Shown here piece after piece: positions 21,281-41,036 of a DNA stretch of 64,000 bases. A program made the translations under genes and the position numbers. Below the pieces are notes generated by a model. It had not been told where the DNA came from and made no database searches. It worked only from the letters and a program-made list of their open reading frames with translations. Origin of the DNA: Comamonadaceae bacterium (lineage in GTDB: Bacteria; Pseudomonadota; Gammaproteobacteria; Burkholderiales; Burkholderiaceae_C); the NCBI GenBank assembly GCA_947450895.1, contig CANFWT010000006.1, positions 11,048 through 75,047 on the forward strand, written 5' to 3'. The first letter of the stretch is position 1. Every line of letters starts with the position of its first letter.

Positions 21281-21301
21281 GGCGGGCGTGGCCCTGCTTG
21301 G

Positions 21302-22492: not shown

Positions 22493-22579
22493 TGGGACAC
22501 CGCCCAGCATGTTGCCAACCGGGTCCAAAGTCAGGAGGGAGATGGATGTGATCCACCCTGCCCACATTTGCGCCACCCC

Positions 22580-23488: not shown

Positions 23489-23560
23489 GCGCGGAACCAT
23501 AGGGGTGGGTTGGACTGATTTTTTGGTTTTTGCTACATTTAACGAAATTTAACGCGTTTT

Positions 23561-24088: not shown

Positions 24089-24156
24089 GCGCCGCAGGGC
24101 GGACTTTGGCCTGCGCGGGCGCTGCGCCTGTGGGCCGCACTGCTAAGCTAGGGCGC

Positions 24157-25368
24157 ATGGAAAACCCTGATTCGTCCGCCCTGTTTGCGCAGGCGCCTTT
24201 CGTGCGCTTTTGGCTGGCGCGCCTGAGCGGCATGCTGGCCAACCAAATGCTGATGCTGGCCGTGGCCTGGCAAATGTATGACCTGACCTCCAGCGCCTGG
24301 GACTTGGGGCTGGTGGGCTTGTTCCAGTTTGTGCCGGCGCTGCTGATGACCTTGCCCGCAGGCCATCTGGCTGACCGCTTGCACCGCGGGCGCATTTTTG
24401 CGGCCTGCATGCTGGCGCAGGCGCTGGTGGCCGCCTTGCTTGTGGTCAGCACGCAGGGCGACTGGACTACGCGGGGCCTGATTCTGGGTTTGTCGGTGGT
24501 TTTGGGCATGGCACGCGCGTTTCAAATGCCCGCGCAGCAAGCGCTCACCCCCTTGCTGGTGCCTGCGGCCTTGTTGCAACGCGCTATTTCTGTGAGCTCG
24601 GTGGGCATGCAAATGGCCATTGTGGGTGGGCCAGCGCTGGGCGGCGTGCTGTACGGCGCGGGCGCCAGCACGGTCTACGGCGCCTGTTTGGCGCTGTCCG
24701 TCGTGGCCGCCGCGTTTACCCTGACGGTGCATTACCGCCATGTGCCGGCCCAACGCGCGGCTACGCTGGCCTCGGTGTTTGCCGGGGTGGCTTTTGTCTG
24801 GCGGCGCCAGGTGTTGCTGGGCGCCATGTCGCTCGATTTGTTTGCGGTGCTGCTGGGCGGCGCCACGGCTTTGCTGCCCATTTACGCCCGCGACATTTTG
24901 CATACTGGCCCGCAAGGCCTGGGTCTGCTGCGCGCCGCGCCCGCCGTTGGCGCTTTGCTGATGACGCTGCTGCTGGTGCGCTTTCCGCTGCAGCGCCACG
25001 CAGGCCACAAATTGCTGGGCGCGGTCGCCGTGTTTGGCCTGGCCACGCTGGTGTTTGGCTTGTCGGACCACTTCGCCCTGTCCATGCTGGCGCTGGTGGT
25101 CACGGGTGCCGCCGACAGCATCAGCGTGGTGACACGCCTGACGCTGACGCAACTCGACACGCCCGACGATATGCGTGGCCGCGTGTCCGCGGTGAACTCG
25201 ATTTTTATCGGCGCGTCCAACCAGCTCGGCGAATTTGAGTCTGGCGCCACTGCCGCGCTGCTTGGGCCGGTGGGCTCGGTGGTGCTGGGCGGCGTGGGCA
25301 CGGTGCTGGTTGCGCTGGCCTGGCTCAAGCTTTTTCCTGACCTGGCCCGACGCGACCGTTTGTCTTAA
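24157..25368 (+). CDS. MFS transporter (MFS_3/EntS-like)
   Basis: 12 TM; GHLADRLHRGR loop motif. Confidence 0.88.
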   Translation: MENPDSSALFAQAPFVRFWLARLSGMLANQMLMLAVAWQMYDLTSSAWDLGLVGLFQFVPALLMTLPAGHLADRLHRGRIFAACMLAQALVAALLVVSTQGDWTTRGLILGLSVVLGMARAFQMPAQQALTPLLVPAALLQRAISVSSVGMQMAIVGGPALGGVLYGAGASTVYGACLALSVVAAAFTLTVHYRHVPAQRAATLASVFAGVAFVWRRQVLLGAMSLDLFAVLLGGATALLPIYARDILHTGPQGLGLLRAAPAVGALLMTLLLVRFPLQRHAGHKLLGAVAVFGLATLVFGLSDHFALSMLALVVTGAADSISVVTRLTLTQLDTPDDMRGRVSAVNSIFIGASNQLGEFESGATAALLGPVGSVVLGGVGTVLVALAWLKLFPDLARRDRLS

Positions 25369-25391
25369 ACCCTTGGACCCATTTCATTGCC

Positions 25392-26207
25392 ATGAAAACT
25401 GTGATGCGAACCACTTGCGCACTCGCGTGCGCCCTTGCTGTTTGCGGCCAAGCCGCCCTTGCCCAGTTGGCGAGCCCCGCCACGTTCGAACCCTTGCTGT
25501 CTGGCGCACATCGCTCGCCGGGCAACGTGGCGCGCGACCCCTACCGCCATCCGGCGCAGACGCTGGCGTTTTTTGGCATTCGCGACAACAGCACGGTGGT
25601 GGAAATATTGCCGGGCAGCGGCGGCTACTACATGGAGCTACTGGCCCCGTGGCTCAGGGACAAGGGCCTGTACATCGCAGCCAACCGCGACGGTTCTCAG
25701 CCGCAGTACCTGTCTGACCACCAAAAGCTCTTAAAGCGCCTCCAAGACGAACCGGCCTTGTACGGCAAGGTCGTCGTCACCGAGTTTCGCGCCGACCACC
25801 ACGCCATTGCGCCCCCAGGCAGCGCGGACGTGGTGATCAGCTTTCGCAACCTGCACAACTGGATGGACCAGAACGAGCTCGAGCCCTCGCTCAAGGCGTT
25901 TTACCTGGCTTTGAAGCCCGGTGGCGTGTTGGGCATCGTGGACCACCGCGGGCGCACCGACCAATCCCAGGCCCAGCAGACCGCCAGCGGCTATGTGCGC
26001 CAGGACGTGGCCATTGCACTGATCGAGCAGGCCGGCTTCAAGCTCGACGCCACCTCCGAGGTCAACGCCAACCCCAAAGACACCAAGGATTACCCCGAAG
26101 GCGTCTGGACCCTGCCGCCAAGCTACCGCATGAAAGACGTGGACCGCGAAAAATACCGCGCCATCGGCGAAAGCGACCGATTTACCCTGCGTTTTGTAAA
26201 ACACTAG
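25392..26207 (+). CDS. Signal-peptide-bearing class I SAM methyltransferase (COG4798-like)
   Basis: RDPYRHPAQTL.FFG, VVEILPGSGGYY, FRNLHNW, LKPGG.LGIVDH, ESDRFTLRF. Confidence 0.8.
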   Translation: MKTVMRTTCALACALAVCGQAALAQLASPATFEPLLSGAHRSPGNVARDPYRHPAQTLAFFGIRDNSTVVEILPGSGGYYMELLAPWLRDKGLYIAANRDGSQPQYLSDHQKLLKRLQDEPALYGKVVVTEFRADHHAIAPPGSADVVISFRNLHNWMDQNELEPSLKAFYLALKPGGVLGIVDHRGRTDQSQAQQTASGYVRQDVAIALIEQAGFKLDATSEVNANPKDTKDYPEGVWTLPPSYRMKDVDREKYRAIGESDRFTLRFVKH

Positions 26208-26286
26208 GCATATTACAAGCCCCGCAGATTCGGACGTGCTGTTGCAACTGTCCCCTCTAACCTTCTATCTACCAAGGAGTATCCCT

Positions 26287-26565
26287 ATGAAAGCCGTTTG
26301 GAAGAACACCGTCATTGCCGAGAGCGACGACACCGTCATGGTCGAGGGCAACCACTATTTCCCCGAGTCCTCGCTCAAGCGCGAGTACATCAGCTTTAGC
26401 AACCACAAAACCAGTTGCCCCTGGAAAGGCCAGGCCAGCTACTACTCCATCAACGTCAATGGCGACCTGAACCCTGACGCCGCCTGGTACTACGCCGAGC
26501 CCAAAGAGGCCGCTGCCAACATCAAAGGCCGGGTCGCGTTTTGGAAGGGTGTGCAGGTCAGCTGA
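26287..26565 (+). CDS. DUF427 domain-containing protein
   Basis: VEGNHYFP, TSCPWKGQASYY, AAWYY, IKGRVAFW. Confidence 0.92.
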   Translation: MKAVWKNTVIAESDDTVMVEGNHYFPESSLKREYISFSNHKTSCPWKGQASYYSINVNGDLNPDAAWYYAEPKEAAANIKGRVAFWKGVQVS

Positions 26566-26600: not shown

Positions 26601-27404
26601 CTATGCCGCCAGCAGTACCGGAAAGCTCTCTGAGTCCATCGCCGCGCCGTTGTCCGGCCCGCCACTTGGCGGCGGAGGTGGCGACATAAAGCCGCTGCGC
26701 AGCACAAAGCGCGCGTCGGCGCCGGTAAAGCGCGCCGAGAACGCGCGCCTGCGGTGGGTGCTGGCGTTTTCGGGTGAACCGTGCACCGTCAGGCCGTGAA
26801 AGGCCACGCAGTCCCCAACGTCTAGCGCCCACTGCAGCACTTGGTGTTGGGCGCGTTCGGCCTCGAAGTCGGGCGGCGTCTCAAAGCGGCTGTCTTGCGC
26901 GCTCGCGTGCGCCTTTTGGTCCACAAAGCGCGCGGGTGTAAACCAACGGCCCCAGGCGTGGGAGCCTGCAATGAATTCAATCGACGTGTCTTTTGCCACC
27001 GGGTCCAGCGGAATCCACAGGCTCACGATGTCCTGGCCGTCAATGGGGTAGTAGGGCTGGTCATGGTGCCAGGGCGTACGCTCTTTGGTGCCGGGCTCTT
27101 TCACCAAGACGTGCTCGTGGTAGAGGTTGACCTTGGGCGAGCCCATCAGTTCAGAGGCCAAATGCTTGGCCGGGGACTCAAAAAAGAAGTCGCGGTAAGC
27201 GTCGATGCGCTGCCAGTTGCAATAGTCGCCAAAGAACATGCCCGGGTTGCCTTCGGGGGTGTAGCGCTTGGCGTAGGGGCCGGGCTGGCTGAGGTTTTCT
27301 TCTACCCCCTCGCGCAAGCGGGCGATCCACTCGGCGCTGATGACATTGCGCAGCGGCACGGCGCCGTCGCGTTGGTAGTCGGCGATGGTTTGGGAGTCAA
27401 GCAT
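26601..27404 (-). CDS. PhyH-family Fe(II)/2-oxoglutarate dioxygenase
   Basis: TPWHHDQPY (HxD), VSLWIPLD, FHGLTVHG, RRRA; AAGGA RBS before ATG 27404. Confidence 0.88.
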   Translation of the reverse strand: MLDSQTIADYQRDGAVPLRNVISAEWIARLREGVEENLSQPGPYAKRYTPEGNPGMFFGDYCNWQRIDAYRDFFFESPAKHLASELMGSPKVNLYHEHVLVKEPGTKERTPWHHDQPYYPIDGQDIVSLWIPLDPVAKDTSIEFIAGSHAWGRWFTPARFVDQKAHASAQDSRFETPPDFEAERAQHQVLQWALDVGDCVAFHGLTVHGSPENASTHRRRAFSARFTGADARFVLRSGFMSPPPPPSGGPDNGAAMDSESFPVLLAA

Positions 27405-27450
27405 GGGCGAGGTCCTTGGGGCGTCGGCAGGGGTGTGGGGCGGGTGTTTT

Positions 27451-27471
27451 AGTTGTATAGACAACTATACT
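27451..27471 (+). promoter_or_regulatory. HutC operator plus TATACT -10 element (copy 1)
   Basis: AGTTGTATAGACAACTATACT; dyad TTGTATAGACAA matches the known HutC box; exact reverse complement of 37665-37685. Confidence 0.85.
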
Positions 27472-27536
27472 TTAAGCCACTGGCTTTGTTCAGTGGCGCG
27501 CCGGGCCACAATCGGCTTTTCACAGGAGAGTCCACC

Positions 27537-28607
27537 ATGTTTTTGCGCAACACCTGGTACATCGCCGCCTGGGACCGTGAGCTGGCCCAAGCGCCCTTGG
27601 CAGTGCGTGTGTTGGGTGAAGACATTGTGTTGTACCGCAAGGCGGACGGTAGCGCCGCCGCCCTGGAAGACGCCTGCCCGCACCGCAAGCTGCCGCTGTC
27701 CATGGGCCGCATTCAGGGCGACTACTTGGAGTGCGGCTACCACGGCCTGACCTTTGACTGTGCGGGCACCTGCGTCAAGGTGCCGGGCGCAGACCGCATT
27801 CCTGAGGCGGCGCGGGTGCGCGCGTACCCGCTGGAACTGCGCTACGGCCTGTTGTGGATCTGGATGGGTGCGCCTGAGCGCGCCGACCCGGCCACCATCC
27901 ACCAGATTCCCCACTGGGACGACCCCGCCTGGGGCTGCAACCAGGGCGAGGCCATCGACATGGCCTGCAACTACCTGCATATCACCGACAACCTGCTGGA
28001 CCCCTCGCACGTGTCCTGGGTGCACCAAAGCTCGTTTGGCAGCGCCGCCTGCGAGGACACGCCGCTGGACACCGCAGTGGCCGCCAACGGCGTGACGGTG
28101 TCGCGCTGGATGCGCGACGTGGAGCCCGCGCCGTTTTATGTGCCGTTCTTGAAGTTCAAAGGCCACTGCGACCGAAAGCAGCAGTACGAGGTGCGCTTTC
28201 CCAGCCACGCCTACATCAAGGCCATCTTTGTGCCCGCAGGCACGGGCGGCGACGACCAGCCGCTGCACCCGGACGGCTTCATCATGGACAGCTACAACTT
28301 CATGACGCCAGTGGACGCCACGCACACGCGCTACTACTGGTTCCAAATGCGCAACTTTGCGCCGGGCGACGCCGAGGTGTCGCGCCAGTTCACCGAGTCG
28401 GTGCGCTTTGCTTTTGGCGAGGACAAGCGGATTTTGGAGGCGGTGCAAAAAGGCATAGACCAAGCCCGCGTGCCGCCCATGGGCCTGAAGATTGACCTCG
28501 GCCCGGCGCGCTTTCGCCGCGCCATGGCGCAATTGATTGCCGACGAACAAGCGCTGGCCCCGGCCACAGCGCGCACCATTGCCATCCACCCGGAGACTGC
28601 CGCATGA
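27537..28607 (+). CDS. Rieske non-heme iron oxygenase alpha subunit (VanA/demethylase-like)
   Basis: CPH-x16-CGYH Rieske ligands; DNLLDPSHVSWVH and ED Fe triad; RBS AGGAGAG. Confidence 0.92.
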   Translation: MFLRNTWYIAAWDRELAQAPLAVRVLGEDIVLYRKADGSAAALEDACPHRKLPLSMGRIQGDYLECGYHGLTFDCAGTCVKVPGADRIPEAARVRAYPLELRYGLLWIWMGAPERADPATIHQIPHWDDPAWGCNQGEAIDMACNYLHITDNLLDPSHVSWVHQSSFGSAACEDTPLDTAVAANGVTVSRWMRDVEPAPFYVPFLKFKGHCDRKQQYEVRFPSHAYIKAIFVPAGTGGDDQPLHPDGFIMDSYNFMTPVDATHTRYYWFQMRNFAPGDAEVSRQFTESVRFAFGEDKRILEAVQKGIDQARVPPMGLKIDLGPARFRRAMAQLIADEQALAPATARTIAIHPETAA

Positions 28608-29722
28608 GCGCCACCCCCCACGGCCTGACTTTCAACCCGCATGTGGCGGCGCTGCCGCCCTACAACGCGGGCACCAACGTGGACATTGCCCGAGACGCCT
28701 CGGGCCGCCACGACATTGCCCGCCTGGCCAGCAACGAAAACCCCGAGGGCTGCTCGCCCACAGTGATGCAGGCGCTGGCCTCTGCGGCGTTTGAGCCCTG
28801 GCGCTACGCCGACCCGGCCTGCACCGCCTTGCGCGCGGCGCTCGCTAAGCGCCTGGGTGTGGACGCGGCGCAGATCGTGGTGGGCAATGGCTCGGAAGAA
28901 ATGATTGCCGCGGTCTCGCGCGCGCTGTTGCTGCCCGGCAGCCAGGCGCTGACGGTGGTCCCCAGCTTTGGCCTGCATGAGATTGAGCCGCTGGCGCTGG
29001 GCGCCACCGTTACCAAGCTGCCCATGACCGCAGACTTTGGTTTTGACCTGGTCGCGATCGAGCGCGCCATGGCCAGCGCGCCGCGCATCGTGTTTTTGTC
29101 CTCGCCCTGGAACCCGGTGGGTCCCGCGCTCAGTGCCGCCGATTTGCAGCGCGTCATCGCTGCGGTGCGCCCCGGCAGCCTGCTGGTGCTCGACGAGGCG
29201 TATTTTGAATACGCCGACCCGGGCAGCGTGGACGGCCTGGAGGCGCTCAAGGCCAGTGGCCTGCCCTTTGTGGTGCTGCGCACTTTTTCCAAAGCCTATG
29301 GCTTGGCGGGCCTGCGCGTGGGCTACGCCGTGTGCTCGCACCCCGAGATTGCGCGTGTCATGGCCTCGGCCAAAACGCCGTTCAACGTCAACGCCGCGGC
29401 CCAACTCGCCGCCTTGGCCGCGCTCGACGACGAAGCCTGGATGCACGCCTCGGTGGCGCGTCTGCGCACCGAGCGCATGCGCGTGGCCGCTGCCCTCAAG
29501 GCGCTGGGCCTGCGCGTGGCCGATTCGCAAACCAATTTCTTGTTTTTCGAGTGCCGCAGCGACAGCGCAGAACAAGCCGCTGCGCTCCTGCGCCAGGGCA
29601 TCATCGTCAAGGCCTGGCGCGAGGCGGGCTATGAGCGTTTTATGCGCGCCACCATTGGCAGCGCGCCGGACAACGACCGCTTGTTGTCGGCGCTGGCAGC
29701 GCTCAACCCCGCCGCAATCTGA
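28604..29722 (+). CDS. HisC-like class II PLP aminotransferase
   Basis: LASNENP, GNGSEE, LDEAY, RTFSKAYGLAGLRVGY. Confidence 0.9.
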   Translation: MSATPHGLTFNPHVAALPPYNAGTNVDIARDASGRHDIARLASNENPEGCSPTVMQALASAAFEPWRYADPACTALRAALAKRLGVDAAQIVVGNGSEEMIAAVSRALLLPGSQALTVVPSFGLHEIEPLALGATVTKLPMTADFGFDLVAIERAMASAPRIVFLSSPWNPVGPALSAADLQRVIAAVRPGSLLVLDEAYFEYADPGSVDGLEALKASGLPFVVLRTFSKAYGLAGLRVGYAVCSHPEIARVMASAKTPFNVNAAAQLAALAALDDEAWMHASVARLRTERMRVAAALKALGLRVADSQTNFLFFECRSDSAEQAAALLRQGIIVKAWREAGYERFMRATIGSAPDNDRLLSALAALNPAAI

Positions 29723-29739
29723 CCGCAAAGGAAGCCCGG

Positions 29740-31137
29740 ATGCACGCATTGACTGGTGAGTTCTTAGACGCCCTGCGCACCGCTGTTGGCGCAGCCCATG
29801 TGGCCACCGGCGAGGCCGTGGCGCTGCTGGACGTGGGTTGGAACCCGCACAACCTGGATGCAGGCGTGGTGGTGTCGCCCGCCAGTACCCAGGAGGTCGC
29901 CGCTGTGGTGCGCCTGTGCGCGCAGCACGGCGTGCCACTGGTGCCGCAAGCCGGGCGCACCGGCTTGGTGGGCGGCAGCATTTCGCACCCCGGCGAAATC
30001 GTGCTCTCGCTCTTGCGCCTGAACCACGTTGAGGCCATCGACCCGCAAGAGCGCGTGGCCGTGGTGGGCGCGGGTTGCACCCTGCAAGCGCTGCAAGACG
30101 CTGCTGCGGTGCACCAGTTGGAGCCCGGCATTGACCTGGCCGCACGCGGTTCGGCCACGCTGGGCGGCATGGTGTCCACCAACGCGGGCGGCGTCATGGC
30201 CTTTCGCAACGGCGTGATGCGCCACCGCGTGCTGGGCCTGGAAGCCGTGCTGCCCGACGGCAGCGTGTTCCACGACCTGACCCGGGTGGTAAAAAACTCG
30301 GCGGGCTACGACCTCAAGCACCTGTTCATAGGCGCCGAAGGCACGCTGGGGGTGGTTACGCGCGTGGTGGTCAAGCTCGACCCGCTGCCGCAGGCCACCG
30401 CCACAGCGCTGTTCGGCCTGCCTTCGGTCGAGGCAACGCTTGACGTGATTGCGCTGGCCTTGCAGGCCAAGGCCGGGCACTTGCGGGCTGCTGAAGCGCT
30501 TTGGCGGGACTTTATGCAGCTCAATGCCCAGGCCTTGCACTGGTCGCAAGAGGGCTTTTCGCTGGACCAGCCGATCTTCTTGCTGCTCAAGCTGGGCGGC
30601 GCGGACGAAGCCGCCTTGCAGGCCGCCTTTGAACAACTGTTTGAGAGCACCCTGGCGCGCTACCCCAGCAGCACCGGCATCATCGCCAGCTCGCAGCGCC
30701 AGGAAACCGAGCTCTGGCACCTGCGTGAAGACACGGACATTGTTTACCGCGCCTACCCGCAAGCGCCCTCATTTGACGTGTCGGTGCCCTTGTCGCGCAT
30801 TCCCGCCTATGTGGCCCAGGTGCAAGCCGAACTCGCTGCGCTGGACGCCACGCTGCAACCCTTTATTTTTGGCCATCTGGCCGACGGCAACCTGCACATC
30901 ATCCTCAACGTGCGCGGCCCCGTGGCGCCCGAGCGCGCGCAGGCGGTGGAGCACATTTTGTACCGCCACTTACAGGCCTTGGGCGGCTCGTTCTCGGCCG
31001 AACACGGCGTGGGCTCCAAGCGAATTGGCGCCATGAACGACACCACCAATGCCACCAAACTCGCCGTCATGGCCCAGGTCAAGCGCCTGCTGGACCCGCA
31101 GGGGCTGATGAATCCGGGGAAGGTGTTTCAGGCCTGA
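29740..31137 (+). CDS. FAD-linked oxidase, D-2-hydroxyacid dehydrogenase family (GlcD/D2HGDH-like)
   Basis: PQAGRTGLVGG, GGMVSTNAGG, KNSAGYDL, GAEGTLGVVT, GHLADGNLH, SAEHGVG. Confidence 0.9.
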   Translation: MHALTGEFLDALRTAVGAAHVATGEAVALLDVGWNPHNLDAGVVVSPASTQEVAAVVRLCAQHGVPLVPQAGRTGLVGGSISHPGEIVLSLLRLNHVEAIDPQERVAVVGAGCTLQALQDAAAVHQLEPGIDLAARGSATLGGMVSTNAGGVMAFRNGVMRHRVLGLEAVLPDGSVFHDLTRVVKNSAGYDLKHLFIGAEGTLGVVTRVVVKLDPLPQATATALFGLPSVEATLDVIALALQAKAGHLRAAEALWRDFMQLNAQALHWSQEGFSLDQPIFLLLKLGGADEAALQAAFEQLFESTLARYPSSTGIIASSQRQETELWHLREDTDIVYRAYPQAPSFDVSVPLSRIPAYVAQVQAELAALDATLQPFIFGHLADGNLHIILNVRGPVAPERAQAVEHILYRHLQALGGSFSAEHGVGSKRIGAMNDTTNATKLAVMAQVKRLLDPQGLMNPGKVFQA

Positions 31138-31158
31138 GCGCCGCAACCCGACGCCGGG

Positions 31159-31968
31159 CTACACCAGCATGGCCGCGCCGCGGTCCAGGTAGGTGTCCAG
31201 GAACTGGTCAAGCCGGGGGTGGCGGGGTTTGCCAAACACTTCGCTGGGCGTGCCTTGCAGCAGCAAGCGGCCTTGGTCCAAAAACGTGATGCGGTTGGCC
31301 ACTGACGCGGCAAAGCCAATCTCGTGCGACACCACCACCATGGTCATGCCGTCGGCGGCCAGGTCGCGCATCACTTTGAGTACTTCGCCCGTTAATTCAG
31401 GGTCGAGGGAGGACGTGGGCTCGTCAAACAGCATGATCTTGGGCTCGCAAGCCAGCGCGCGCGCAATGGCCACACGCTGCTGCTGCCCGCCCGAGAGTTG
31501 CGATGGGTAGTGGCCCGCGCGGTCTTCCAGGCCCACTTTGCGCAACTGCGCCAAAGCGCGCTCTTCTGCTTGTGCCTTGGGCATACCACGCGCGGTTTTC
31601 AGGGCCTCGCTCACATTGCCCAGCGCCGTCATGTGCGGCCACAGATTGAATTGTTGAAAGCACATGCCGATGTGCGAGCGCACCTCACGGATGCGCTGCG
31701 GGCTCAGGCGCACGCGCTGGCCGCCACTTTCTTGCGAGAAACCCAGGGGCTCGCCATTGATCAATATGGTGCCCGCCGTGGCCTCTTCCAAAAAGGCCAT
31801 GCAACGCAAGAGCGTACTTTTACCCGAGCCCGAGGGCCCGATCACGCAGGTCACCTGGCCATGCGCGATGTCCAGGTCAATGCCGTGCAAGACCTCGGTC
31901 TGGCCGAAGCGCTTGCTCACGCCGCGCACCGAAATGGCGGCAGCGGGGGAGGTGGTTGCAGAGCTCAT
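31159..31968 (-). CDS. Polar amino-acid ABC transporter ATP-binding protein
   Basis: GPSGSGKST, LSGGQQQR, FDEPTSSLDPE. Confidence 0.93.
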   Translation of the reverse strand: MSSATTSPAAAISVRGVSKRFGQTEVLHGIDLDIAHGQVTCVIGPSGSGKSTLLRCMAFLEEATAGTILINGEPLGFSQESGGQRVRLSPQRIREVRSHIGMCFQQFNLWPHMTALGNVSEALKTARGMPKAQAEERALAQLRKVGLEDRAGHYPSQLSGGQQQRVAIARALACEPKIMLFDEPTSSLDPELTGEVLKVMRDLAADGMTMVVVSHEIGFAASVANRITFLDQGRLLLQGTPSEVFGKPRHPRLDQFLDTYLDRGAAMLV

Positions 31969-32633
31969 GTGTGTGAAAACGTGTATTTGGAGAGTCGTTT
32001 TTCGGCAAAGCTGCCAATGCGTCCTGCCAGCGACACCATGGCCCAGTAAAAGCAGGCCAGCACGGCCATGGCTTCGACAAACGCGTATTGCTGCGAGCCA
32101 ATGGCCTGCATCAAAAAGGTCAGCTCTGGCACCGTGATGATGGACAACACCGCCGTTTCCTTGAGCAAGATGACGGTCATATTGATGACCGGCGGCAGCA
32201 CCAGCATGGTCATCTCGGGCACCTGAATGCGCCAGATGATCTGAGCGCGGGTCAGTCCCAGGCATTGCGCTGCTTCCACGTGGCCGCCGGGCACGGCCTC
32301 AAAACCGGCGCGAAAGATTTCGCTGAAGTAGGCCGCGCCGTACACGGTCACACCGAGCAAACCCGCGGGCATGGGGTCTAGCGCAATGCCGATAAACGGG
32401 CCGCCGTAGTACAGCAAAAACAGCTGGATCAAAAAGGGCGTGCCACGGATGATTTCCACATAGGCGCTGAGCAACCATCGCAGCCACCACGGTCCGAAGC
32501 GCAGCCCCAGGGTGACAAAAAACCCCAGCACCACCGCGCCAGCGGTGCCCACCAGCCAGATCATGCAGGTCACACCGATGGAGCGCACCAGCTCGGGCAG
32601 TTGCTCAACGATGTGGGTGAAGTCAATGATCAT
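31965..32633 (-). CDS. Polar amino-acid ABC permease
   Basis: RGTPFLIQL, AYFSEIFRAG, EAA loop. Confidence 0.92.
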   Translation of the reverse strand: MIIDFTHIVEQLPELVRSIGVTCMIWLVGTAGAVVLGFFVTLGLRFGPWWLRWLLSAYVEIIRGTPFLIQLFLLYYGGPFIGIALDPMPAGLLGVTVYGAAYFSEIFRAGFEAVPGGHVEAAQCLGLTRAQIIWRIQVPEMTMLVLPPVINMTVILLKETAVLSIITVPELTFLMQAIGSQQYAFVEAMAVLACFYWAMVSLAGRIGSFAEKRLSKYTFSHT

Positions 32634-33271
32634 CGGATACCCCAGCTAAACGAGCGCTCCAGCCGCCGCCCTAAGCGTGACAGCGTCCAGTTCGTCACGA
32701 AGTACAGCAAACCGGCGACCGCAAACAATTCCAGGGGCCGAAAAGTACTGGCCGCCAGGTCTTGCGCCATGCGGGTGAGCTCCACCACGCCCACCACCGA
32801 CACCAGCGAGGACGCTTTGACGATCATGATGGCCTCGCTGGTCAGCGCGGGCAGGGTCAGGCGCAGGGCGATGGGCACCTTGATACGCCAAAACTGCTGC
32901 AGTGGGCTCAGACCCAGCATATCGGCGGCCTCTAACAGTCCGCGCGGCACGCTGGTCAGCCCACCGCGCATGTTCTCAGCCTGGTAGGCCGCGTCGCACA
33001 GCGAGAGGCCCACCACGGCGGCCACCAGGCTGGGTACGTTCAGGCCCAGCACCGGCAGCAGGTTGTAAATCAGGAGCAGCTGCACCAAGAGAGGCGAGCC
33101 GCGAAAAAAACTGACAAAAGTGCGTCCGCACCAGGAAACAGCACGGTTGCGCGAGAGCATGGCGCCAGACACGCCGATGCCAATCACGAGGCCCAACACA
33201 ATGGAGACGGCACTGATGGCGATGGTCAAGCCACAGGCTTTCACGAGGAGTGCGAACAGTTTCCAGGACAA
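32630..33271 (-). CDS. Polar amino-acid ABC permease
   Basis: RGSPLLVQL, AYQAENMRGG, KASSLVS. Confidence 0.92.
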   Translation of the reverse strand: MSWKLFALLVKACGLTIAISAVSIVLGLVIGIGVSGAMLSRNRAVSWCGRTFVSFFRGSPLLVQLLLIYNLLPVLGLNVPSLVAAVVGLSLCDAAYQAENMRGGLTSVPRGLLEAADMLGLSPLQQFWRIKVPIALRLTLPALTSEAIMIVKASSLVSVVGVVELTRMAQDLAASTFRPLELFAVAGLLYFVTNWTLSRLGRRLERSFSWGIR

Positions 33272-33348
33272 ATCGGGCTCCGGGGAGTGAGAAATTGCGC
33301 CAGGAACCGCGCCCGTCGAGGGAGAAGTTCCTGGCGCAGACGCCTGGA

Positions 33349-34173
33349 TTACAGGGCGGGGTTGGTCACTGCGTCGGGTGTGTCAAACGAATCGCCAAAC
33401 CATTTCTTCTGGATTTTGGCCAGGCGTCCGTCGGCTTTGACCTTGAGCATGGCGGCCGTGATGGCTGCCATCAGCGTGGCAGAGTCGTCGTCCTTGCGCG
33501 CTACATAACCAAAATAGCTCTTGATGCCAAATGCGGGCTTGACCACTTCAAAGGTGTCGGAGCGTTGCTGCGCCACGTAAGTGATATTGGGCAGCGAATT
33601 GCCCACCGCCACGATGCGCCCTGCGGCCAGGTCGGCATAGGCTTCGTTGTTGCCGGGGTACTCGCGCACGTCGGCTTTGCCCAGGCTCTCGGCAAAGGTC
33701 TTGAGTTGCGCCAGCTGGGCCGAAGCCTTGCCGCCACCTACCGGTTTGCCGGCGATGTCTTCGGGCTTCATCACCGCCTTGTCGCCTTTGCGCTTGAGCA
33801 GGGCCACGGTGGCCTCAGCGATAGGCGGTGTGAAGCGGTAGCGCTCCATGCGGGCTTTGGTAACGGTCACCGGGCCGGTCACCATGTCGAACTTCTTGGC
33901 TTCCAGGCCGGGCAACACGCCTTCCCACGGCAGGGCGGTCCACTCGGTTTTCACACCCATTTCCTTGGCCACTTCGTTCATCAAGTCCATGTTCAGGCCG
34001 ACGTGGGTGCCGCCGTCAATGAAGTCAAACGGTGCAAAGGCGGTTTCGGTGCCGATCTTCAGCACGCCCGAGGCTTTGGTACGGGCCAGGGCATCTTGCG
34101 CTTGTGCGCCAAAGGCAAAGCCCAAGACGAGAGTGGCGCCCAAGAGGGTTTTTAGTACTAGTCGTTTGCTCAT
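33349..34173 (-). CDS. Amino-acid ABC substrate-binding protein (family 3)
   Basis: Signal peptide; GTETAFAPF, ERYRFTPP, IQKKWFG. Confidence 0.92.
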   Translation of the reverse strand: MSKRLVLKTLLGATLVLGFAFGAQAQDALARTKASGVLKIGTETAFAPFDFIDGGTHVGLNMDLMNEVAKEMGVKTEWTALPWEGVLPGLEAKKFDMVTGPVTVTKARMERYRFTPPIAEATVALLKRKGDKAVMKPEDIAGKPVGGGKASAQLAQLKTFAESLGKADVREYPGNNEAYADLAAGRIVAVGNSLPNITYVAQQRSDTFEVVKPAFGIKSYFGYVARKDDDSATLMAAITAAMLKVKADGRLAKIQKKWFGDSFDTPDAVTNPAL

Positions 34174-34338
34174 GCTTGTCTCCGGTAAAAAACAGGGTTA
34201 GAAAAAAATCGGGATCGCGGCTGCAGAGTTCTTGTCGGGCGCCGCCATGCAGGTGGTGTAAAGAGCGTGGTGGAGGGTGTTTCGGTGCGGCGTCCTTTCA
34301 AAGTATACGGTTCGGTGTCTGCGGGTTTGTACCTGTAC

Positions 34339-35889
34339 TTAGGCGGCGATCCACAGTGGCGGCAGTGCGTCCAGCGTGCGCAATATCCGCGCCAGCGACC
34401 CGTCTTCCACCAGCGTGGTGGCGTGCGCAATGTCAGATGCCAAGTAGCGGTCGTGTTCCATCTTGGGCACGTGTTGGCGCAGCAGCGCGTGCACCGCTTC
34501 GAGTGCGTGCGAGCTTTGCAGCGGCCGCAAAAAGTCGATGCCCTGGGCGGCGGCCAGCAGCTCAATGCCCAAAATGTGCGCGGTGTTGCTCACCATCGCC
34601 TGCAGGCGCCGCGCGGCAAAAGTGGCCATGGACACATGGTCTTCCTGGTTGGCGCTGGTGGGCAGGCTGTCTACGCTGGCCGGATGCGCCAGCGATTTGT
34701 TCTCAGACGCCAGCGCGGCGGCAGTCACGTGCGCAATCATGAAGCCGCTGTTGAGGCCGGCGTCATCGGTCAAAAACGGCGGCAGGCGCGACACGCTGCT
34801 GTCGATCAGCATGGCAATGCGCCGCTCGGCAATGGCGCCCACCTCGGCAATGGCCAGCGCCATGCCGTCAGCCGCCAAGGCCACCGGCTCGGCGTGGAAG
34901 TTGCCGCCCGAGAGCATGGCGCCGTCTTGCGCAAACACCAGTGGGTTGTCGGTAACGGCGTTGGCTTCTATCAGCAGCACGCGGGCCGCGTGGCGCAGCT
35001 GGTCCAGGCAGGCGCCCACCACTTGCGGCTGGCAGCGCAGGCAGTAGGGGTCTTGCACCCGGTCATCGCCATCCAGGTGCGAATGTCGAATGGCGCTGCC
35101 CGCAAGCAGTGCGCGGTAGTACTGGGCCACGTCGATCTGGCCGGGCTGGCCGCGCAGCAAGTGGATGCGCGGGTCAAACGGGCCGTCGCTGCCGCGCGCG
35201 GCGTCAATGGTCAGCGCGCCAATCACCAGCGCGGCTTCCAGCACCGGCTCAAACACCAGCAGCGCGTGCAGCGCCAGTGCGGTGGAGGTTTGGGTGCCGT
35301 TGATCAGCGCCAGCCCTTCTTTGGGGCCGAGCGCCAGCGGTGCAATGCCAGCGGCCTGCAAGGCGCCCAGGGCCGGTACCGGCGCGCCGCCTGCCAGCAT
35401 GAAGCCTTCGCCCATGAGCGCCAGCGTCATGTGCGCCAGCGGCGCCAGGTCGCCAGACGCGCCCACCGAACCTTTGGACGGCACCCACGGCACCAAGCCC
35501 GCGTTGAACACCGCCAACAAGGTGTCGACCACCACCTGGCGCACGCCCGAGTAGCCGCGCGCCAGGCTGGCCGCCTTGAGCGCGAGCATCAGGCGCATCA
35601 CGGCGGGTTGCAGCGGCTCGCCCACGCCCACGCAGTGGGAACGAATCAGGTTGAGCTGCAGCGTGGCGAGTTGCGATTTGCTGATGCGCTGGTTGGCCAG
35701 CTTGCCAAAGCCGGTGTTCACGCCATAGACCGGCGCGTCGCCGTCGGCGGCGTCTTGCACTACCTGTTGGCTGGCCGCAATGGCCGCGTGGCAGGATTGC
35801 GGCAGCTGCAGTTGCACGCCACCGGCATGGATGGCTTGGAGTTGCTCCAGCGTCAGGTGGCCGGGGTGGATGGAGAGGGTTGGCGTCAT
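34339..35889 (-). CDS. hutH: Histidine ammonia-lyase
   Basis: [20 protein letters not shown] (MIO-forming ASG), [18 protein letters not shown]. Confidence 0.97.
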
Positions 35890-35890
35890 G

Positions 35891-37609
35891 TCAGAGGGCT
35901 TTCATCGGCAGGTTCAGGCCCTGTTCGCGGGCGCAGTCTTCGGCAATGGTGTAGCCCGCATCGGCGTGGCGCATTACGCCGGTGGCTGGGTCGTTCCACA
36001 GCACGCGGCCCAGGCGCTCGGCGGCCTCGGGCGTGCCGTCGGCCACGATGACCACGCCGCTGTGTTGCGAGTAGCCCATGCCCACGCCGCCGCCATGGTG
36101 CAGGCTGACCCAGGTGGCGCCGCTGGCGGTGTTGAGCAAGGCGTTGAGCAGCGGCCAGTCGCTCACCGCATCGCTGCCGTCTTGCATGGCTTCGGTCTCG
36201 CGGTTGGGCGATGCCACCGAGCCGCTGTCGAGGTGGTCCCGGCCAATGACGATGGGGCCTTTGAGCTCGCCGCTTCGGACCATCTCGTTAAACGCCAGCC
36301 CAGCCAGGTGCCGCTCGCCCAGGCCAATCCAGCAAATGCGCGCGGGCAGGCCCTGGAAGGCAATGCGCTCGCCCGCCATGTCCAGCCAGCGCAGCAGGCC
36401 TGCGTTGTGCGGAAACAGCGCTTTCATTTTGGCGTCGGTCTTGCGAATGTCTTCGGGGTCGCCGCTGAGCGCCACCCAGCGGAAGGGGCCAATGCCTTTG
36501 CAAAACAGGGGCCGCACATAGGCGGGTACGAAGCCGGGGTAGTCAAAGGCATTGGCTACGCCGTAGTCTTTGGCCACCTGGCGCAGGTTGTTGCCGTAGT
36601 CCACGGTGGGAATGCCCATGGCATGGAATTCGAGCAGCGCGCGCACATGCACCGCGCAAGACGCGCCCGCAGCCTGGGTGAGTTCGGCGTGTTGCGCCGG
36701 GTCGGCTTGGGCGGCGCGCCAGCGCGCCACGCTCCAGCCGCTGGGCAAGTAGCCGTTGATGATGTCGTGCGCCGAGGTCTGGTCGGTCACGATGTCCGGG
36801 CGCAGACCACCCATCCGTGCGCGGCGCGCCAGTTCGGGCAGCAGGTCGGCCGCGTTGCCGCACAGGCCAATCGACACCGCCTCTTTGCGCGCCGTGTGGT
36901 GGGCCACCATCTCCAAGGCTTCGTCCAGGTTGGCGGCTTGCTTGTCCAGGTAGCGGGTGCGCAGCCGGAAGTCGATGCTGCTTTGCTGGCATTCGATGTT
37001 GAGCGAGCAGGCCCCGGCAAAGGTCGCCGCCAGTGGTTGGGCGCCGCCCATGCCGCCCAAGCCTGCGGTCAGCACCCAGCGCCCGCTCAGGTCGCCGCCG
37101 TAGTGCTGGCGTCCGGCCTCAACAAAGGTCTCGTACGTGCCTTGCACAATGCCTTGCGAGCCGATGTAAATCCAGCTCCCCGCCGTCATCTGCCCGTACA
37201 TCATCAGCCCGGCGCGGTCGAGTTCGTTGAAATGCTCCCAGGTCGCCCACTTGGGCACCAGGTTGGAGTTGGCAATCAGCACGCGCGGCGCGTCGGTGTG
37301 GGTGCGAAACACGCCCACCGGTTTGCCGCTTTGCACCAGCAGCGTCTCGTTGGCCTGGAGCTTGCGCAGGCTGTCCAGAATGCCCTCAAAGCAGGCCCAG
37401 TTGCGCGCCGCCTTGCCAATGCCGCCGTACACCACCAGCTGGTCGGGGTTTTCGGCCACCTCGGGGTCCAGGTTGTTTTGCAGCATGCGGTAGGCCGCCT
37501 CGATCTGCCAGTTGGCGCAGCGCAGTTCAGGGCCGCGTGGCGCGCGCACCGGGCGGGCCTGGGCGTTGGCAAAAGGGCTGGGTGAGGTGGGGGAGGGACT
37601 TGCGGACAT
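35891..37609 (-). CDS. hutU: Urocanate hydratase
   Basis: [58 protein letters not shown]. Confidence 0.98.
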
Positions 37610-37664
37610 GGTGTGGGCGTGGGAAAAAAGGGAGTGCGAAAAGTCAGTTGAGGGTTGCAAGAAT

Positions 37665-37685
37665 AGTATAGTTGTCTATACAACT
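37665..37685 (-). promoter_or_regulatory. HutC operator plus -10 element in the hutU/hutC divergent promoter (copy 2)
   Basis: Plus strand AGTATAGTTGTCTATACAACT, i.e. minus strand AGTTGTATAGACAACTATACT, at the canonical HutC position. Confidence 0.9.
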
Positions 37686-37725
37686 TTCAGGAGCACGGGG
37701 AAACCCGCAAGCAGAAAAACACGGC

Positions 37726-38436
37726 ATGTCCACCCCCCAGCTCCCGGCCTATGAACAGGTCAAGGCCTTTGTCAAAGGGCAAATCACCAGCGGCGCCCTG
37801 CAAGCAGGCGACACCGTGCCCAGCGAGGCGGCGCTGCAGCAGCAGTTTGGCGTCAGCCGCATGACGGTCAACCGCGCGGTCAAGGAGCTGGCGACCGAAG
37901 GCCTGGTGACAAGGCAGCGCGGCTCGGGCACGGTGGTGGCGCAGTGGCACCGCATATCGAGCATGCTGGCGGTGCGCGACATCCACGAAGAAGTGCTGGA
38001 GCGCGGCCACGCCCACACCAGCCGCGTGCTGCGCCTGGAAACTGTCGCCGCCGATGCCGCGCTGGCCCAGGCGCTGGGCGTGCCCGTGGGCGCCCCGCTG
38101 TTCCATTCGGTGATGGTGCACCTGGAAAACGGCGTGGCCATTCAGATCGAAGACCGCCATGTCAACCCGGCGGTCGCTCCTGGCTACCTGGCGCAGGACT
38201 TTCAAACCACCACGCCCACCCAGTATTTGTTTGCCTGCGCGCCCTTGACCGAGGCGCGCTATTCCATCGAGGCCGCGCTGCCCAGCGCCGCAGAGGCCAA
38301 AAGCCTGGACATTGGCCGCAGCGCGCCCTGCTTGGTCATCACCCGCTGCACGGTAAGCGGCGCCCATGTAGCCAGCCAGGCGCGCCTGGTCTACCCCGGC
38401 GCGCGCTACAGCCTGAGCGGCAATTTTCAGCTGTAA
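37726..38436 (+). CDS. hutC: Histidine utilization repressor (GntR/HutC)
   Basis: PSEAALQQQFGVSRMTVNRA wHTH plus UTRA domain; hut context. Confidence 0.95.
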   Translation: MSTPQLPAYEQVKAFVKGQITSGALQAGDTVPSEAALQQQFGVSRMTVNRAVKELATEGLVTRQRGSGTVVAQWHRISSMLAVRDIHEEVLERGHAHTSRVLRLETVAADAALAQALGVPVGAPLFHSVMVHLENGVAIQIEDRHVNPAVAPGYLAQDFQTTTPTQYLFACAPLTEARYSIEAALPSAAEAKSLDIGRSAPCLVITRCTVSGAHVASQARLVYPGARYSLSGNFQL

Positions 38437-38440
38437 AACG

Positions 38441-39013
38441 ATGAAGTGGAACACCCTGGCCTTGGTCGAGCTAGCCCCCAGCCCCTGGAAAAATGGCGGC
38501 GGCGTGACGCGCGAATTGCTGGCCTGGCCCAGCCCGGCGCACTGGCTGTTTCGCCTGTCGGTGGCCGAGGTGCAGGCTGACGGCCCTTTTTCTCGCTTCG
38601 AGGGCGTGCAGCGCTGGTTTGCCGTGCTCTCTGGCGCGGGCGTGCGGCTGCGCCTGGGCGACGGTGGGGCAGGGGAGGTGGCCATGCTCACCCCCGCAAG
38701 TGCGCCTTTTTGTTTTGACGGCGCGCTTGCCGTCGACTGCGCGCTGATTGACGGCGCCACGCAAGACTTCAACCTCATGCTGCGCACCGACCGGGCCAGC
38801 GCGCACCTGCTGCGGGTCGTGGACCGGCTGGACGCGGTGACTGCGGGCCCGCGCACCGTCGCCATTTGGGCGGGCGTGTCTGGCGCCGAGATTTGGGCCG
38901 GACAAGCCTGCACCCGGCTGGCCGGCCACAGCCTGGCCTGGCGGGCGCTGCCTGCGGGCGTGGCCCTCAACGTGCGCTCAACCGACGCTTTGTACATGGA
39001 GATAGACGCATGA
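38441..39013 (+). CDS. hutD: HutD family protein
   Basis: [30 protein letters not shown]. Confidence 0.92.
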
Positions 39014-40224
39014 GCCTGCAACTTTGGCACCACTGCACCCTGGCCACCTTGCAGGCCGACGCCACCGAGCCCTACGGCCTGGTGCCCGACGGCGCCATGG
39101 TGGTGCAAGGCGCCACCTTGAAATGGGTGGGGCCGCTGGCCGCGCTGCCCAAGGCGCTGCGTGCCCAATGCAGCCTGCAGCACGACGCGCGCGGCGCGCT
39201 CATCACCCCCGGGCTGATTGATTGCCACACGCATTTGGTCTATGGCGGCGACCGCGCTGCCGAGTTTGAGCAGCGCCTGCAAGGCGTGGGCTACGAAGAA
39301 ATAGCCCGCCGTGGCGGCGGCATTGCGTCCACGGTGCGCGCCACGCGCGAGGCCAGCGCCGAACAACTCACGGCCAGCAGCGCCCAGCGCCTGCGCCGCT
39401 TGATGGCCGAGGGCGTGACCACCGTGGAGATCAAGTCCGGCTACGGCCTGGCGCTGGCGCACGAGCGCAAATGCCTGCAAGTGGCGCGCGCCCTGGGCGC
39501 CGACCACGCGGTCGACGTGCGCACCACGTTTTTGGGCGCCCACGCGCTGCCGCCTGAGTTTGCCGGGCAGGGCGACGCTTATATCGACGAGGTGCTGCGC
39601 ATGCTGGCGCAGTTGGCTGGCGAGGGCTTGGTGGACGCCGTAGACGCGTTTTGCGAGCGCATTGCGTTTAGCACTGCGCAGACCGAGCGGGTGTTCCAGG
39701 CCGCGCAGGCGCTGGGCTTGGCGCTCAAGCTGCACGCCGAGCAGCTCAGCGACAGCGGCGGCGCGCAACTGGCCGCGCGTTATGGCGCACTGAGCTGCGA
39801 CCACCTGGAATGGCTGTCCGACGCGGGCGCTGCCGCCATGGCAGACGCGGGCAGCGTGGCGGTGCTCTTGCCCGGGGCCTTTTACTTTTTGCGCGAAACC
39901 AAGCTGCCGCCCATGGACTTGCTGCGCCAGCACGGCGTGCCCATGGCCATTTCCACCGACTGCAACCCCGGCAGCTCGCCCTGCACCTCGCTGCTGCTCA
40001 TGCTCAATATGGCCTGCACCCTGTTTCGCCTGACGCCCGAAGAAGCGCTGGCCGGCGTCACCCGCCATGCTGCCCGCGCCTTGGGCCTGCGCGACCGGGG
40101 CGTGTTGGCGCCGGGCTTGCGTGCCGACTTTGTGCTGTGGGACCTGCAGCATCCGGCGCAACTGGCCTACGCCCTGGGCGCCAACCCGCTGATCCATACC
40201 GTTTTCAAAGGCGAAGTGCGATGA
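39010..40224 (+). CDS. hutI: Imidazolonepropionase
   Basis: [38 protein letters not shown]. Confidence 0.96.
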
Positions 40225-41036
40225 CCCACCCCGAGACCTATTCCCTGCACCGAGGCAGCGCGCCGCTTTTGCTCAGCTTGCCGCACACAGGCACCCAGAT
40301 TCCGCCCGAATTGCAGGCCGACTACGTGCCGCGCGCCCTGGCGGTGGAAGACACCGACTGGCACCTGGCGCGCCTCTACGACTTTGCGCCGCAAATGGGC
40401 GCGAGCGTGCTGCGCCCGCATTTCAGCCGCTACGTGATTGACCTCAACCGCCCGCCCGACGACGCACCCATGTATCCCGGCGCCTCCAACACCGAACTCT
40501 GCCCCACGCGCTTCTTTACCGGCGAGGCGCTCTACCTGGACGGATACGCGCCCGATGCCGCAGAGCGCGCACGCCGCCGCAGCCGGTACTGGGAGCCCTA
40601 CCACCAGGCCTTGCAGGCCGAGTTGCAGCGCATCACGGCCCTCCACGGCTACGCGCTGCTATGGGATGGCCACAGCATTCGCTCACAAATCCCTTGGTTG
40701 TTTGAGGGCCGCCTGCCCGACCTGAACATTGGCACGGCCAGCGGTGCCAGCGCCGATGCCACGGTTGCCCAGGCGGTGCAGGCGGCGTGCCAAATCCAAG
40801 CCCAGTTCAGCCAGGTGCTCAACGGCCGCTTCAAGGGTGGCTACATCACCCGCCACTACGGCGCGCCCCAGCGCCGGGTGCACGCGGTGCAGCTGGAAAT
40901 GTGCCAGTCCATGTACATGCAGGAGGCGCCGCCCTTCGACTACCGCCCGCAAGCGGCCACGGCGGTACAGCCGCTGCTGCAGTCCCTGCTGGCGGCCGCT
41001 TTGCACGCCTGCGAGGTTTTGTATGCCCCGCGCTGA
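40221..41036 (+). CDS. hutG: N-formylglutamate deformylase
   Basis: [48 protein letters not shown]. Confidence 0.95.

Follow-up and report, generated by a model that had tools for sequence, protein, structure and literature searches.

HutC is the repressor of the histidine utilisation (hut) genes, and its regulons are usually described as the hut genes themselves plus, in Pseudomonas, some weak global targets. In the hut operons of Pseudomonas and Klebsiella, the gene encoding this GntR/UTRA repressor is divergent from hutU, and a palindromic operator of the type TGTA-N2-TACA or GTMTAKAC overlaps the promoters. A hut locus of the same layout is present in the stretch of DNA analysed here, 64,000 nucleotides from a Comamonadaceae bacterium (assembly GCA_947450895.1, contig CANFWT010000006.1, positions 11,048 to 75,047; C6:11048-75047 in our numbering, and hereafter the window); by analogy, hutC autoregulation and urocanate as the inducer may be expected. 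The sequence of the hutU/hutC operator occurs a second time in the window, in front of an oxygenase locus formed by an operon for a Rieske oxygenase, an aminotransferase and a flavin adenine dinucleotide (FAD) oxidase, and by a divergent gene for a PhyH-family dioxygenase. This system differs from that of Pseudomonas and Klebsiella in that the operator arms are longer (AGTTGT...ACAACT), and in that a -10-like TATACT is joined to the operator, which at hutU is preceded by the element GGGTTTYCCCG; in addition, its predicted regulon includes the Rieske operon and the PhyH gene, which are not described as HutC targets in the searchable literature. The explanation that best accounts for these sequences, and that we hold with good confidence, is that HutC would control the oxygenase locus, and that this locus would serve as a histidine feeder.

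The Rieske oxygenase resembles the aryl O-demethylases VanA, DdmC and GdmA and the methylxanthine N-demethylases NdmA-C, with which it shares the Rieske plus VanA_C architecture and intact metal motifs; a gene for a single-protein FNR/2Fe-2S reductase is likewise adjacent in most lineages, and formaldehyde-handling genes are found nearby. However, the match to the nearest structures is only about 150-170 bits, the locus of the source clade is devoid of a reductase gene, and the context is histidine catabolism instead of the catabolism of aromatic compounds or purine alkaloids. Betaine demethylation by GbcAB (glycine betaine) and Stc2-4 (stachydrine) is comparable in that a Rieske oxygenase and a reductase make formaldehyde and feed amino-acid catabolism, and in that a dedicated activator is the regulator in most hosts; in contrast, the oxygenase described here belongs to a different Rieske subfamily, and no downstream N-methyl amino-acid oxidases accompany it. 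A third system is the imidazolyl-lactate route (EC 1.1.1.111, EC 2.6.1.38) of Pseudomonas testosteroni and P. acidovorans, which belong to the same bacterial family; the oxidation of a 2-hydroxyacid followed by transamination to histidine would explain the pairing of a FAD oxidase with a HisC-like enzyme, and also the link to hut. The conversion of imidazolyl-lactate to histidine through imidazolylpyruvate was reportedly studied biochemically by Coote and Hassall in 1973, in Pseudomonas (Comamonas) testosteroni and P. acidovorans; the classical dehydrogenase is said to be NAD(P)-dependent and not a FAD-linked enzyme of the GlcD type, and we know of no genes ever assigned to this route.

The repeated operator and its probable regulator

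An exact 21-bp repeat had been reported in the initial annotation, and the search revealed two copies of AGTTGTATAGACAACTATACT in the window, at 27451-27471 on the plus strand and at 37665-37685 on the minus strand, with no third match at up to 3 mismatches. A chance origin had been judged unlikely, and indeed no match was obtained in 100 dinucleotide-preserving shuffles. The elements of the two divergent regions are the following:

27451-27466 (+): predicted HutC-type operator AGTTGTATAGACAACT, a 16-bp dyad that overlaps the -10-like TATACT at 27466-71
27451..27471 (+): operator/-10 module, the sole operator in the 132-bp PhyH/Rieske divergent region, with TATACT toward the Rieske operon
27464..27492 (-): sigma-70-like promoter TGAACA-17-TATAGT facing the PhyH gene (1 site versus 0.1 expected in shuffles)
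37665..37685 (-): identical operator/-10 module in the 116-bp hutU/hutC divergent region, with TATACT toward hutU
37696..37706 (-): GGGTTTCCCCG element, exactly 10 nt upstream of the hutU operator

At the scale of the whole assembly (3,133,460 bp in 141 contigs, 61% GC), the dyad TTGTMTAKACAA is confined to these two sites. The best sites with one mismatch, C4:8824 and C14:42653, were rejected as unrelated, and no hut link was seen on inspection. The one at C14:42653 is a half-site with one mismatch (AGTAGTCTATACAAAA), in an AT-rich intergenic region upstream of a 113-aa open reading frame (ORF); it could be a weak HutC site or a chance occurrence.

The hutC product contains the GntR and UTRA domains of Pfam and reaches 279.8 bits with the equivalog model TIGR02018 (cut-off 220), which identifies it as HutC; only two UTRA-type regulators are encoded in the genome, the second one on contig C1. 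The HutC site of Pseudomonas has been defined experimentally as TGTA-N2-TACA (PMC12977541), and the consensus of the HutC subfamily is GTMTAKAC (PMC4494728). At both sites of the window, TTGTATAGACAA is a palindrome with a GT-M-TA-K-AC core that is also TGTA-N2-TACA-like, and it fits the two published consensuses. Furthermore, as expected for an operator of this repressor, it is found in the hut promoter next to hutC and in few sites per genome (2 here, 1-3 in relatives). The earlier assignment of the dyad to the HutC operator type is therefore in agreement with both consensuses (PMC12977541, PMC4494728) and with the identity of the adjacent regulator; judging from the sequence, the 16-bp dyad is very probably the operator of the histidine-utilisation repressor HutC, used twice in the genome.

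The initial annotation also mentioned ORFs that start in both sites and read MSIQL and MYRQLY. Such entries do appear in the ORF list (27453..28607+, 26601..27464-, 37276..37683- and 37672..38436+), but they are artefacts of a TTG within the operator; the genuine start codons are ATGs, located at 27404(-), 27537(+), 37609(-) and 37726(+).

Conservation of the operator in related genomes

A search with the Rieske protein retrieved 80 loci with 65-89% identity, which include 15 close relatives (80-89%) from freshwater Comamonadaceae and Rhodoferax-like assemblies. A motif scan upstream of the orthologs had been proposed as a check, with a missing motif as a refutation; the opposite was observed, as AGTTGTMTAGACAACTATACT was found approximately 85 nt upstream of the Rieske start in 14 of the 15 close loci, with variable flanks. 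Many of these relatives have a second operator copy 66 bp farther up, 54 nt from the PhyH start: two copies are present in L006-L009, L011, L012, L014 and L016-L018, and one in the window, L005, L010 and L019; in L013 the second copy is degenerate. The single site of the window has the flank of the distal copy on its left and that of the proximal copy on its right, and the Rieske promoter of the window and L005 looks like the product of a deletion between the 66-bp-spaced repeats. An insertion of about 135 bp (...GAGGAGCGCAGCGACGCGGCGATCCA...GGATTGCTTCGCTTTGCTCGCAATGAC...) between the PhyH gene and the distal operator is seen only in L009, L012 and L018, and looks like a small mobile repeat.

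The dyad is also present between hutU and hutC in those loci where the contig extends that far (L006, L007, L010 and L019). Among 12 same-genus genomes examined, those bearing the motif have 1-3 copies of GTTGTMTAKACAAC; in the four carriers it is always located at hutU and, if a Rieske ortholog is present, upstream of this gene too, with the exception of G007. GTTGTMTAKACAAC is absent from 4 of the 12 genomes, those without hutU, and also from four hutU-positive ones, three of which have a more divergent hutU (81-82% identity). Two other lineages have variants of the site: L024, a more distant Rhodoferax, carries AATGTATAGACAWT at hutH and 42 nt before the Rieske gene, and L069, L070 and L084 (Rhodobacterales) carry TATGTGTAGACATA at the hut operon and again 27 nt ahead of the Rieske gene. 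In each of the three lineages, the operator variant of the hut site matches that of the Rieske site; since the operator sequences and their positions (-85, -42 and -27) differ, the comparison suggests that the site arose upstream of the Rieske gene more than once. The proposal that the four genes at 26.6-31.1 kb belong to the HutC regulon is thus favoured by the conservation in 14/15 loci, by the genome-wide confinement of the motif, and by the matched hut and Rieske variants.

Genes of the PhyH family were also observed next to hut genes in other genomes. One is a PhyH homolog of 45% identity in a Lichenihabitans assembly (L025:1481), which adjoins a hutC-like gene and is preceded at 80 nt by a HutC-type site; in another genome (L134), a member of the PhyH family with 34% identity is flanked by hutC-like and hutU genes. 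Hut loci may have acquired dioxygenases of the PhyH type repeatedly; the class-level homologs were seen with flanks of only about 1.5 kb, which were mostly uninformative.

Promoter architecture of the two divergent regions

The flank ACTATAC(T) of the operator is a potential -10 in both directions. As claimed before, TATACT points toward the Rieske gene (ATG at 27537) at the first site and toward hutU (ATG at 37609, minus strand) at the second, with the operator in the spacer upstream; on the opposite strand it becomes a TATAGT that faces the PhyH gene or hutC and is immediately followed by the operator. Because the operator is directly downstream of the PhyH-facing promoter, this arrangement predicts that a single operator can block both divergent promoters of the PhyH/Rieske region. 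The TATACT upstream of the Rieske gene is invariant in the relatives.

The element GGGTTTYCCCG, or (t)caGGGTTTYCCCG in its extended form, is located 10 nt before the Rieske-proximal operator in 13 relatives, and it has the same spacing at the hutU promoters, whose common layout is GGGTTTYCCCG-N10-operator-TAYACT. It has 25 copies genome-wide, several of them apparently intergenic, and its role could be that of an activator site or of an upstream element of the promoter; a sigma-54 reading was rejected by inspection, given that the GG-to-GC spacing is wrong. The exact identity of 21/21 positions is particular to the source genome; since several relatives read TACACT at hutU, the unit that is conserved, according to these alignments, is the operator of 16-19 bp and not the whole 21-mer.

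These data bear on a different view of the site, according to which 27451-27471 is not a working HutC operator but a relic of promoter duplication or gene conversion, or else a target of the HutC-subfamily regulator of contig C1, so that the locus would be independent of histidine. It is true that palindromic GT-N-TA-N-AC cores are common to many HutC-subfamily regulators (PMC4494728) and that the genome has a second UTRA regulator; besides, the site of the window resembles a hybrid formed by deletion between operator repeats, it is not preceded by GGGTTTTCCCG, and the relative L015 is devoid of the site. Nevertheless, the 21-nt identity with the hutU/hutC operator, the confinement of the motif to hut and Rieske promoters in five genomes, the invariance of the site among species-level relatives whose flanks drift, and the operator variants that both sites share in three lineages, with a distance to the Rieske start that differs among the three, all argue against it. 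Given this conservation and the genome-wide specificity, it is unlikely that the site is non-functional or differently bound, and a histidine-independent locus appears very improbable to us.

Genes of the oxygenase and hut loci

The oxygenase locus at the first site consists of the following genes:

26601..27404 (-): PhyH-family Fe(II)/2-oxoglutarate dioxygenase, 267 aa (Pfam PF05721, 106 bits)
27537..28607 (+): Rieske non-heme-iron oxygenase of the VanA/DdmC type, 356 aa (Pfam Rieske and VanA_C)
28604..29722 (+): HisC-like pyridoxal-phosphate aminotransferase, 372 aa; 4-nt overlap with the end of the Rieske gene
29740..31137 (+): FAD-linked oxidase of the GlcD / D-2-hydroxyacid-dehydrogenase type, 465 aa (Pfam FAD_binding_4 and FAD-oxidase_C)

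The PhyH protein belongs to its family by the intact HxD iron motif (HHD at residues 113-115), and its closest entry in PDB is MysH (132 bits). Likewise, the Rieske protein has the intact motifs C47xH...C66xxH and D155xxHxxxxH; its closest PDB entries are the O-demethylases GdmA (7QWT) and DdmC, and NdmA/B are also related. The aminotransferase scores 293.6 bits with TIGR01141 (cut-off 276.55), and it stays below the cut-off of PRK05166 (420 versus 540). The canonical hisC, 30% identical to the window copy, sits in a hisG-D-C-B-H-A operon on contig C37; for this reason the HisC-like gene of the window is taken, from its sequence and position, as a second paralog that is part of a catabolic operon and lies outside a his-operon context. 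The FAD oxidase is a member of the D-2-hydroxyacid dehydrogenase group, with 3pm9, human D2HGDH and D-LDH (D-2-hydroxyglutarate/D-lactate dehydrogenases) as its closest PDB entries; it misses the glcD equivalog cut-off (249 versus 568), which indicates that it is not glycolate oxidase itself. In public annotations these proteins have generic names, such as 'aromatic ring-hydroxylating dioxygenase', 'histidinol-phosphate transaminase' and 'FAD-binding oxidoreductase'.

At the second site, the minus-strand operon has the order hutU, hutH, substrate-binding protein, two permeases and ATPase of an ATP-binding cassette (ABC) transporter, and the plus-strand operon is hutC-hutD-hutI-hutG-hutF:

35891-37609 (-): hutU (NCBIfam, 914 bits)
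34339-35889 (-): hutH (NCBIfam, 682 bits)
33349-34173 (-): substrate-binding protein of a polar-amino-acid ABC family (NCBIfam)
32630-33271 and 31965-32633 (-): permeases of polar-amino-acid ABC families that resemble ectoine-type ABC systems
31159 to about 31950 (-): ABC ATPase of a polar-amino-acid ABC family (NCBIfam)
37726-38436 (+): hutC (NCBIfam TIGR02018, above cut-off)
38441-39013 (+): hutD (Pfam HutD)
about 39010-40224 (+): hutI (NCBIfam TIGR01224, above cut-off)
about 40230-41036 (+): hutG, N-formylglutamate deformylase (NCBIfam TIGR02017, above cut-off)
about 41035-42432 (+): hutF (NCBIfam TIGR02022, above cut-off)

Upstream of the oxygenase locus, the region 16396-26565 (+) encodes a TldD/PmbA pair, a FAD monooxygenase, an EamA transporter, a major facilitator superfamily transporter and a DUF427 protein (26236-26565); it also includes a 704-aa ORF without a Pfam match (19166-21280, +) and a 271-aa ORF assigned to no family (25392-26207, +). 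The DUF427 gene remains beside the Rieske/PhyH locus in L005-L007 and L015. Elsewhere in the assembly, a C-rich repeat (GGGTTTCCCCCCCCTATCCCCCC..CCCCCTTTCCACCCC.GCGGGGT.GAAAGG) is found at or near contig ends (C25:373, C36:161, C100:347, and C137:4074 and 4241), and is probably a dispersed repeat that breaks the assembly.

The oxygenase cluster in other Proteobacteria

The trio of Rieske oxygenase, aminotransferase and FAD oxidase is conserved in Alpha-, Beta- and Gammaproteobacteria, and at 65-70% identity the cluster is present in many genera, among them Acidovorax, Polaromonas, Mesorhizobium, Aminobacter, Aureimonas, Ensifer, Shinella, Gemmobacter, Steroidobacter and Povalibacter. The initial annotation referred to an uncharacterised oxygenase locus. 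This holds insofar as no paper in the searchable literature gives the trio a function, nor was anything found there on a methylhistidine demethylase or on a Rieske enzyme related to imidazole propionate, methylhistidine or hercynine, and the supplement of the GntR regulon paper contains nothing on the oxygenase cluster; however, the locus is not a stand-alone one but part of a widely conserved cluster, run elsewhere by a LysR regulator. Within the fetched flanks of the 80 Rieske loci, the following features were counted:

HisC-like aminotransferase: 58/80 loci
FAD oxidase: 52/80 loci
aminotransferase and FAD oxidase together: 51/80 loci
hutH or hutU within 10 kb: 23/80 loci
divergent GcvA-like LysR regulator: 60/80 loci
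FNR/2Fe-2S reductase after the Rieske gene: 51/80 loci
DUF2817 deacylase-like protein: 36/80 loci
formaldehyde-detoxification genes: 10/80 loci

When the genomes behind these loci were checked for hutU, the gene was found elsewhere in all 50 tested genomes that have no hut genes in the flank. Even sampling at the class level (400 genomes) and at the family level (300 genomes) recovered almost no Rieske orthologs.

In 10 loci, which represent four lineages (Acidovorax, Mesorhizobium/Rhizobiales, Rhodobacterales and Ensifer/Shinella), the glutathione-dependent formaldehyde-detoxification genes, which encode S-(hydroxymethyl)glutathione dehydrogenase and Gfa, both above the equivalog cut-offs, are co-directional and lie inside the cluster. 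Some minimal modules comprise LysR, the Rieske oxygenase, the reductase and an ABC transporter of the amino-acid type, but none of the other enzymes, and in L015 the Rieske gene is alone beside hutH. A DUF2817 protein and a polar-amino-acid ABC transporter are common outside the close clade. In L053:14733-16862 the DUF2817 domain, weakly similar to AstE/AspA and of the zinc deacylase type, forms one ORF with an ABC ATPase, and the same order is seen in other Mesorhizobium loci; in L023:8804-9943, DUF2817 has a gene of its own, immediately before the Rieske gene.

Outside the source clade the cluster has its own LysR regulator and FNR/2Fe-2S reductase, whereas the source Comamonadaceae clade has neither; there the cluster adjoins hutUH and bears HutC operators. 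Two other lineages combine LysR with a HutC-type site, which lies at another position before the Rieske gene.

Proposed regulation and function

By analogy with characterised HutC proteins, a HutC dimer bound to the operator would block both divergent directions at each site, and urocanate, made from histidine by HutH, would release it; a joint derepression of the hut genes and the oxygenase locus is, on this analogy, very likely. The Rieske operon itself would probably act as a feeder, supplying the Hut pathway with L-histidine made from histidine derivatives. As for the chemistry, the evidence leans toward the Rieske oxygenase being an oxidative demethylase of a methylated histidine derivative that would release formaldehyde. 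This assignment derives from the formaldehyde genes embedded in the cluster, the likeness to GdmA, DdmC and NdmA/B, the modules that contain only the Rieske enzyme, reductase and ABC transporter, and the Rieske gene beside hutH in L015. A ring N-methylhistidine, possibly freed from a dipeptide or N-acyl form, would be the first candidate substrate, and the N-alpha-methyl/hercynine series the second; the path from imidazole-lactate through imidazole-pyruvate to histidine would fall to the FAD oxidase and the HisC-like aminotransferase.

The second candidate can be developed into an explanation of its own. The Rieske enzyme would act on the alpha-nitrogen series (hercynine, which is histidine betaine, or N-alpha-methylhistidines) and not on ring-methylated compounds, either stripping the methyls or cleaving the C-alpha-N bond; the imidazole-pyruvate formed by such a cleavage would then be the substrate from which the HisC-like enzyme makes histidine. 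Hercynine is widespread in soil and water, and this scheme would provide the aminotransferase with a direct role; the formaldehyde genes suit a demethylation, the reductase is weakly GbcB-like, the LysR regulator is GcvA-like or similar to a choline-sulfate regulator, and the permeases resemble ectoine-type ABC systems. Still, Stc2, CntA and GbcA are not among the PDB matches at E<=1e-10 nor among the NCBIfam matches, and there is no detectable likeness beyond the Rieske domain; moreover, a lyase route that leads directly from hercynine to urocanate already exists (bioRxiv 10.1101/2025.08.13.670108). For these reasons we regard a dedicated alpha-nitrogen route as rather unlikely.

The explanation that we favoured at first does not involve demethylation. 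In a linear route, the Rieske oxygenase would hydroxylate imidazole propionate to imidazolyl-lactate, the FAD enzyme would oxidise this to imidazolylpyruvate, and the HisC-like enzyme would aminate the latter to histidine; the trio would then provide the genes for the pathway on which Coote and Hassall reportedly worked in Pseudomonas (Comamonas) testosteroni. Every step suits its enzyme class, the trio is co-conserved in 51/80 loci, and HutC control would be a case of induction by the substrate; as the title of Schlesinger & Magasanik 1965 states, imidazolepropionate induces hut enzymes in Aerobacter aerogenes. The finding of formaldehyde-detoxification genes inside the cluster in four lineages, which have no role in such a route, and of Rieske/reductase/ABC units and a lone Rieske gene by hutH without the two downstream enzymes, led us to downgrade it. 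In addition, the transporters are of the polar-amino-acid type and the nearest characterised Rieske enzymes are demethylases, and we now see the linear route as improbable.

Several observations weigh against HutC control of a demethylating feeder. Concerning regulation, the promoter scan of the window detected no canonical -35 for the plus-strand TATACT of the Rieske promoter, and the GGGTTTTCCCG element of most relatives is missing at the Rieske promoter of the window and L005; because of this absence, the promoter may be weak or differently driven in the window. L015/G007 is a close relative whose Rieske gene has no operator in front, and most alphaproteobacterial Rieske loci lack a HutC-type site. 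With respect to the enzymes, no reductase partner is encoded at the locus in the window nor in L005-L021, and a generic Fer2-FNR reductase candidate was found only on contig C15 among the contigs of the genome; formaldehyde genes are present in just 10/80 loci, and none was found in the window. Finally, if the product of the Rieske enzyme is already histidine, the aminotransferase and the FAD oxidase would not be needed, and they would have to belong to a parallel branch.

With these points in mind, a more complete scheme can be offered only tentatively. The cluster would represent an undescribed route for methylated histidine, in which a VanA-type Rieske N-demethylase yields formaldehyde and histidine, many hosts add a deacylase (DUF2817) and an ABC importer for amino acids, and the FAD oxidase and the HisC paralog form an imidazole-lactate side branch; in freshwater Comamonadaceae, this cluster would have been taken over by HutC, with the loss of its own LysR and reductase.

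Implications

A regulatory system of a known kind would here be attached to a probably new feeder pathway. No genes have been assigned, in the searchable literature, to the bacterial breakdown of methylhistidine or to the old imidazolyl-lactate pathway, and a high-quality operator ties a conserved and generically annotated trio of enzymes to histidine catabolism. This would provide a concrete and testable functional assignment for a cluster that is present in hundreds of soil and freshwater Proteobacteria. It would also be an example of regulatory rewiring: LysR controls this catabolic module in most hosts, whereas in this clade of Comamonadaceae HutC operators take its place.

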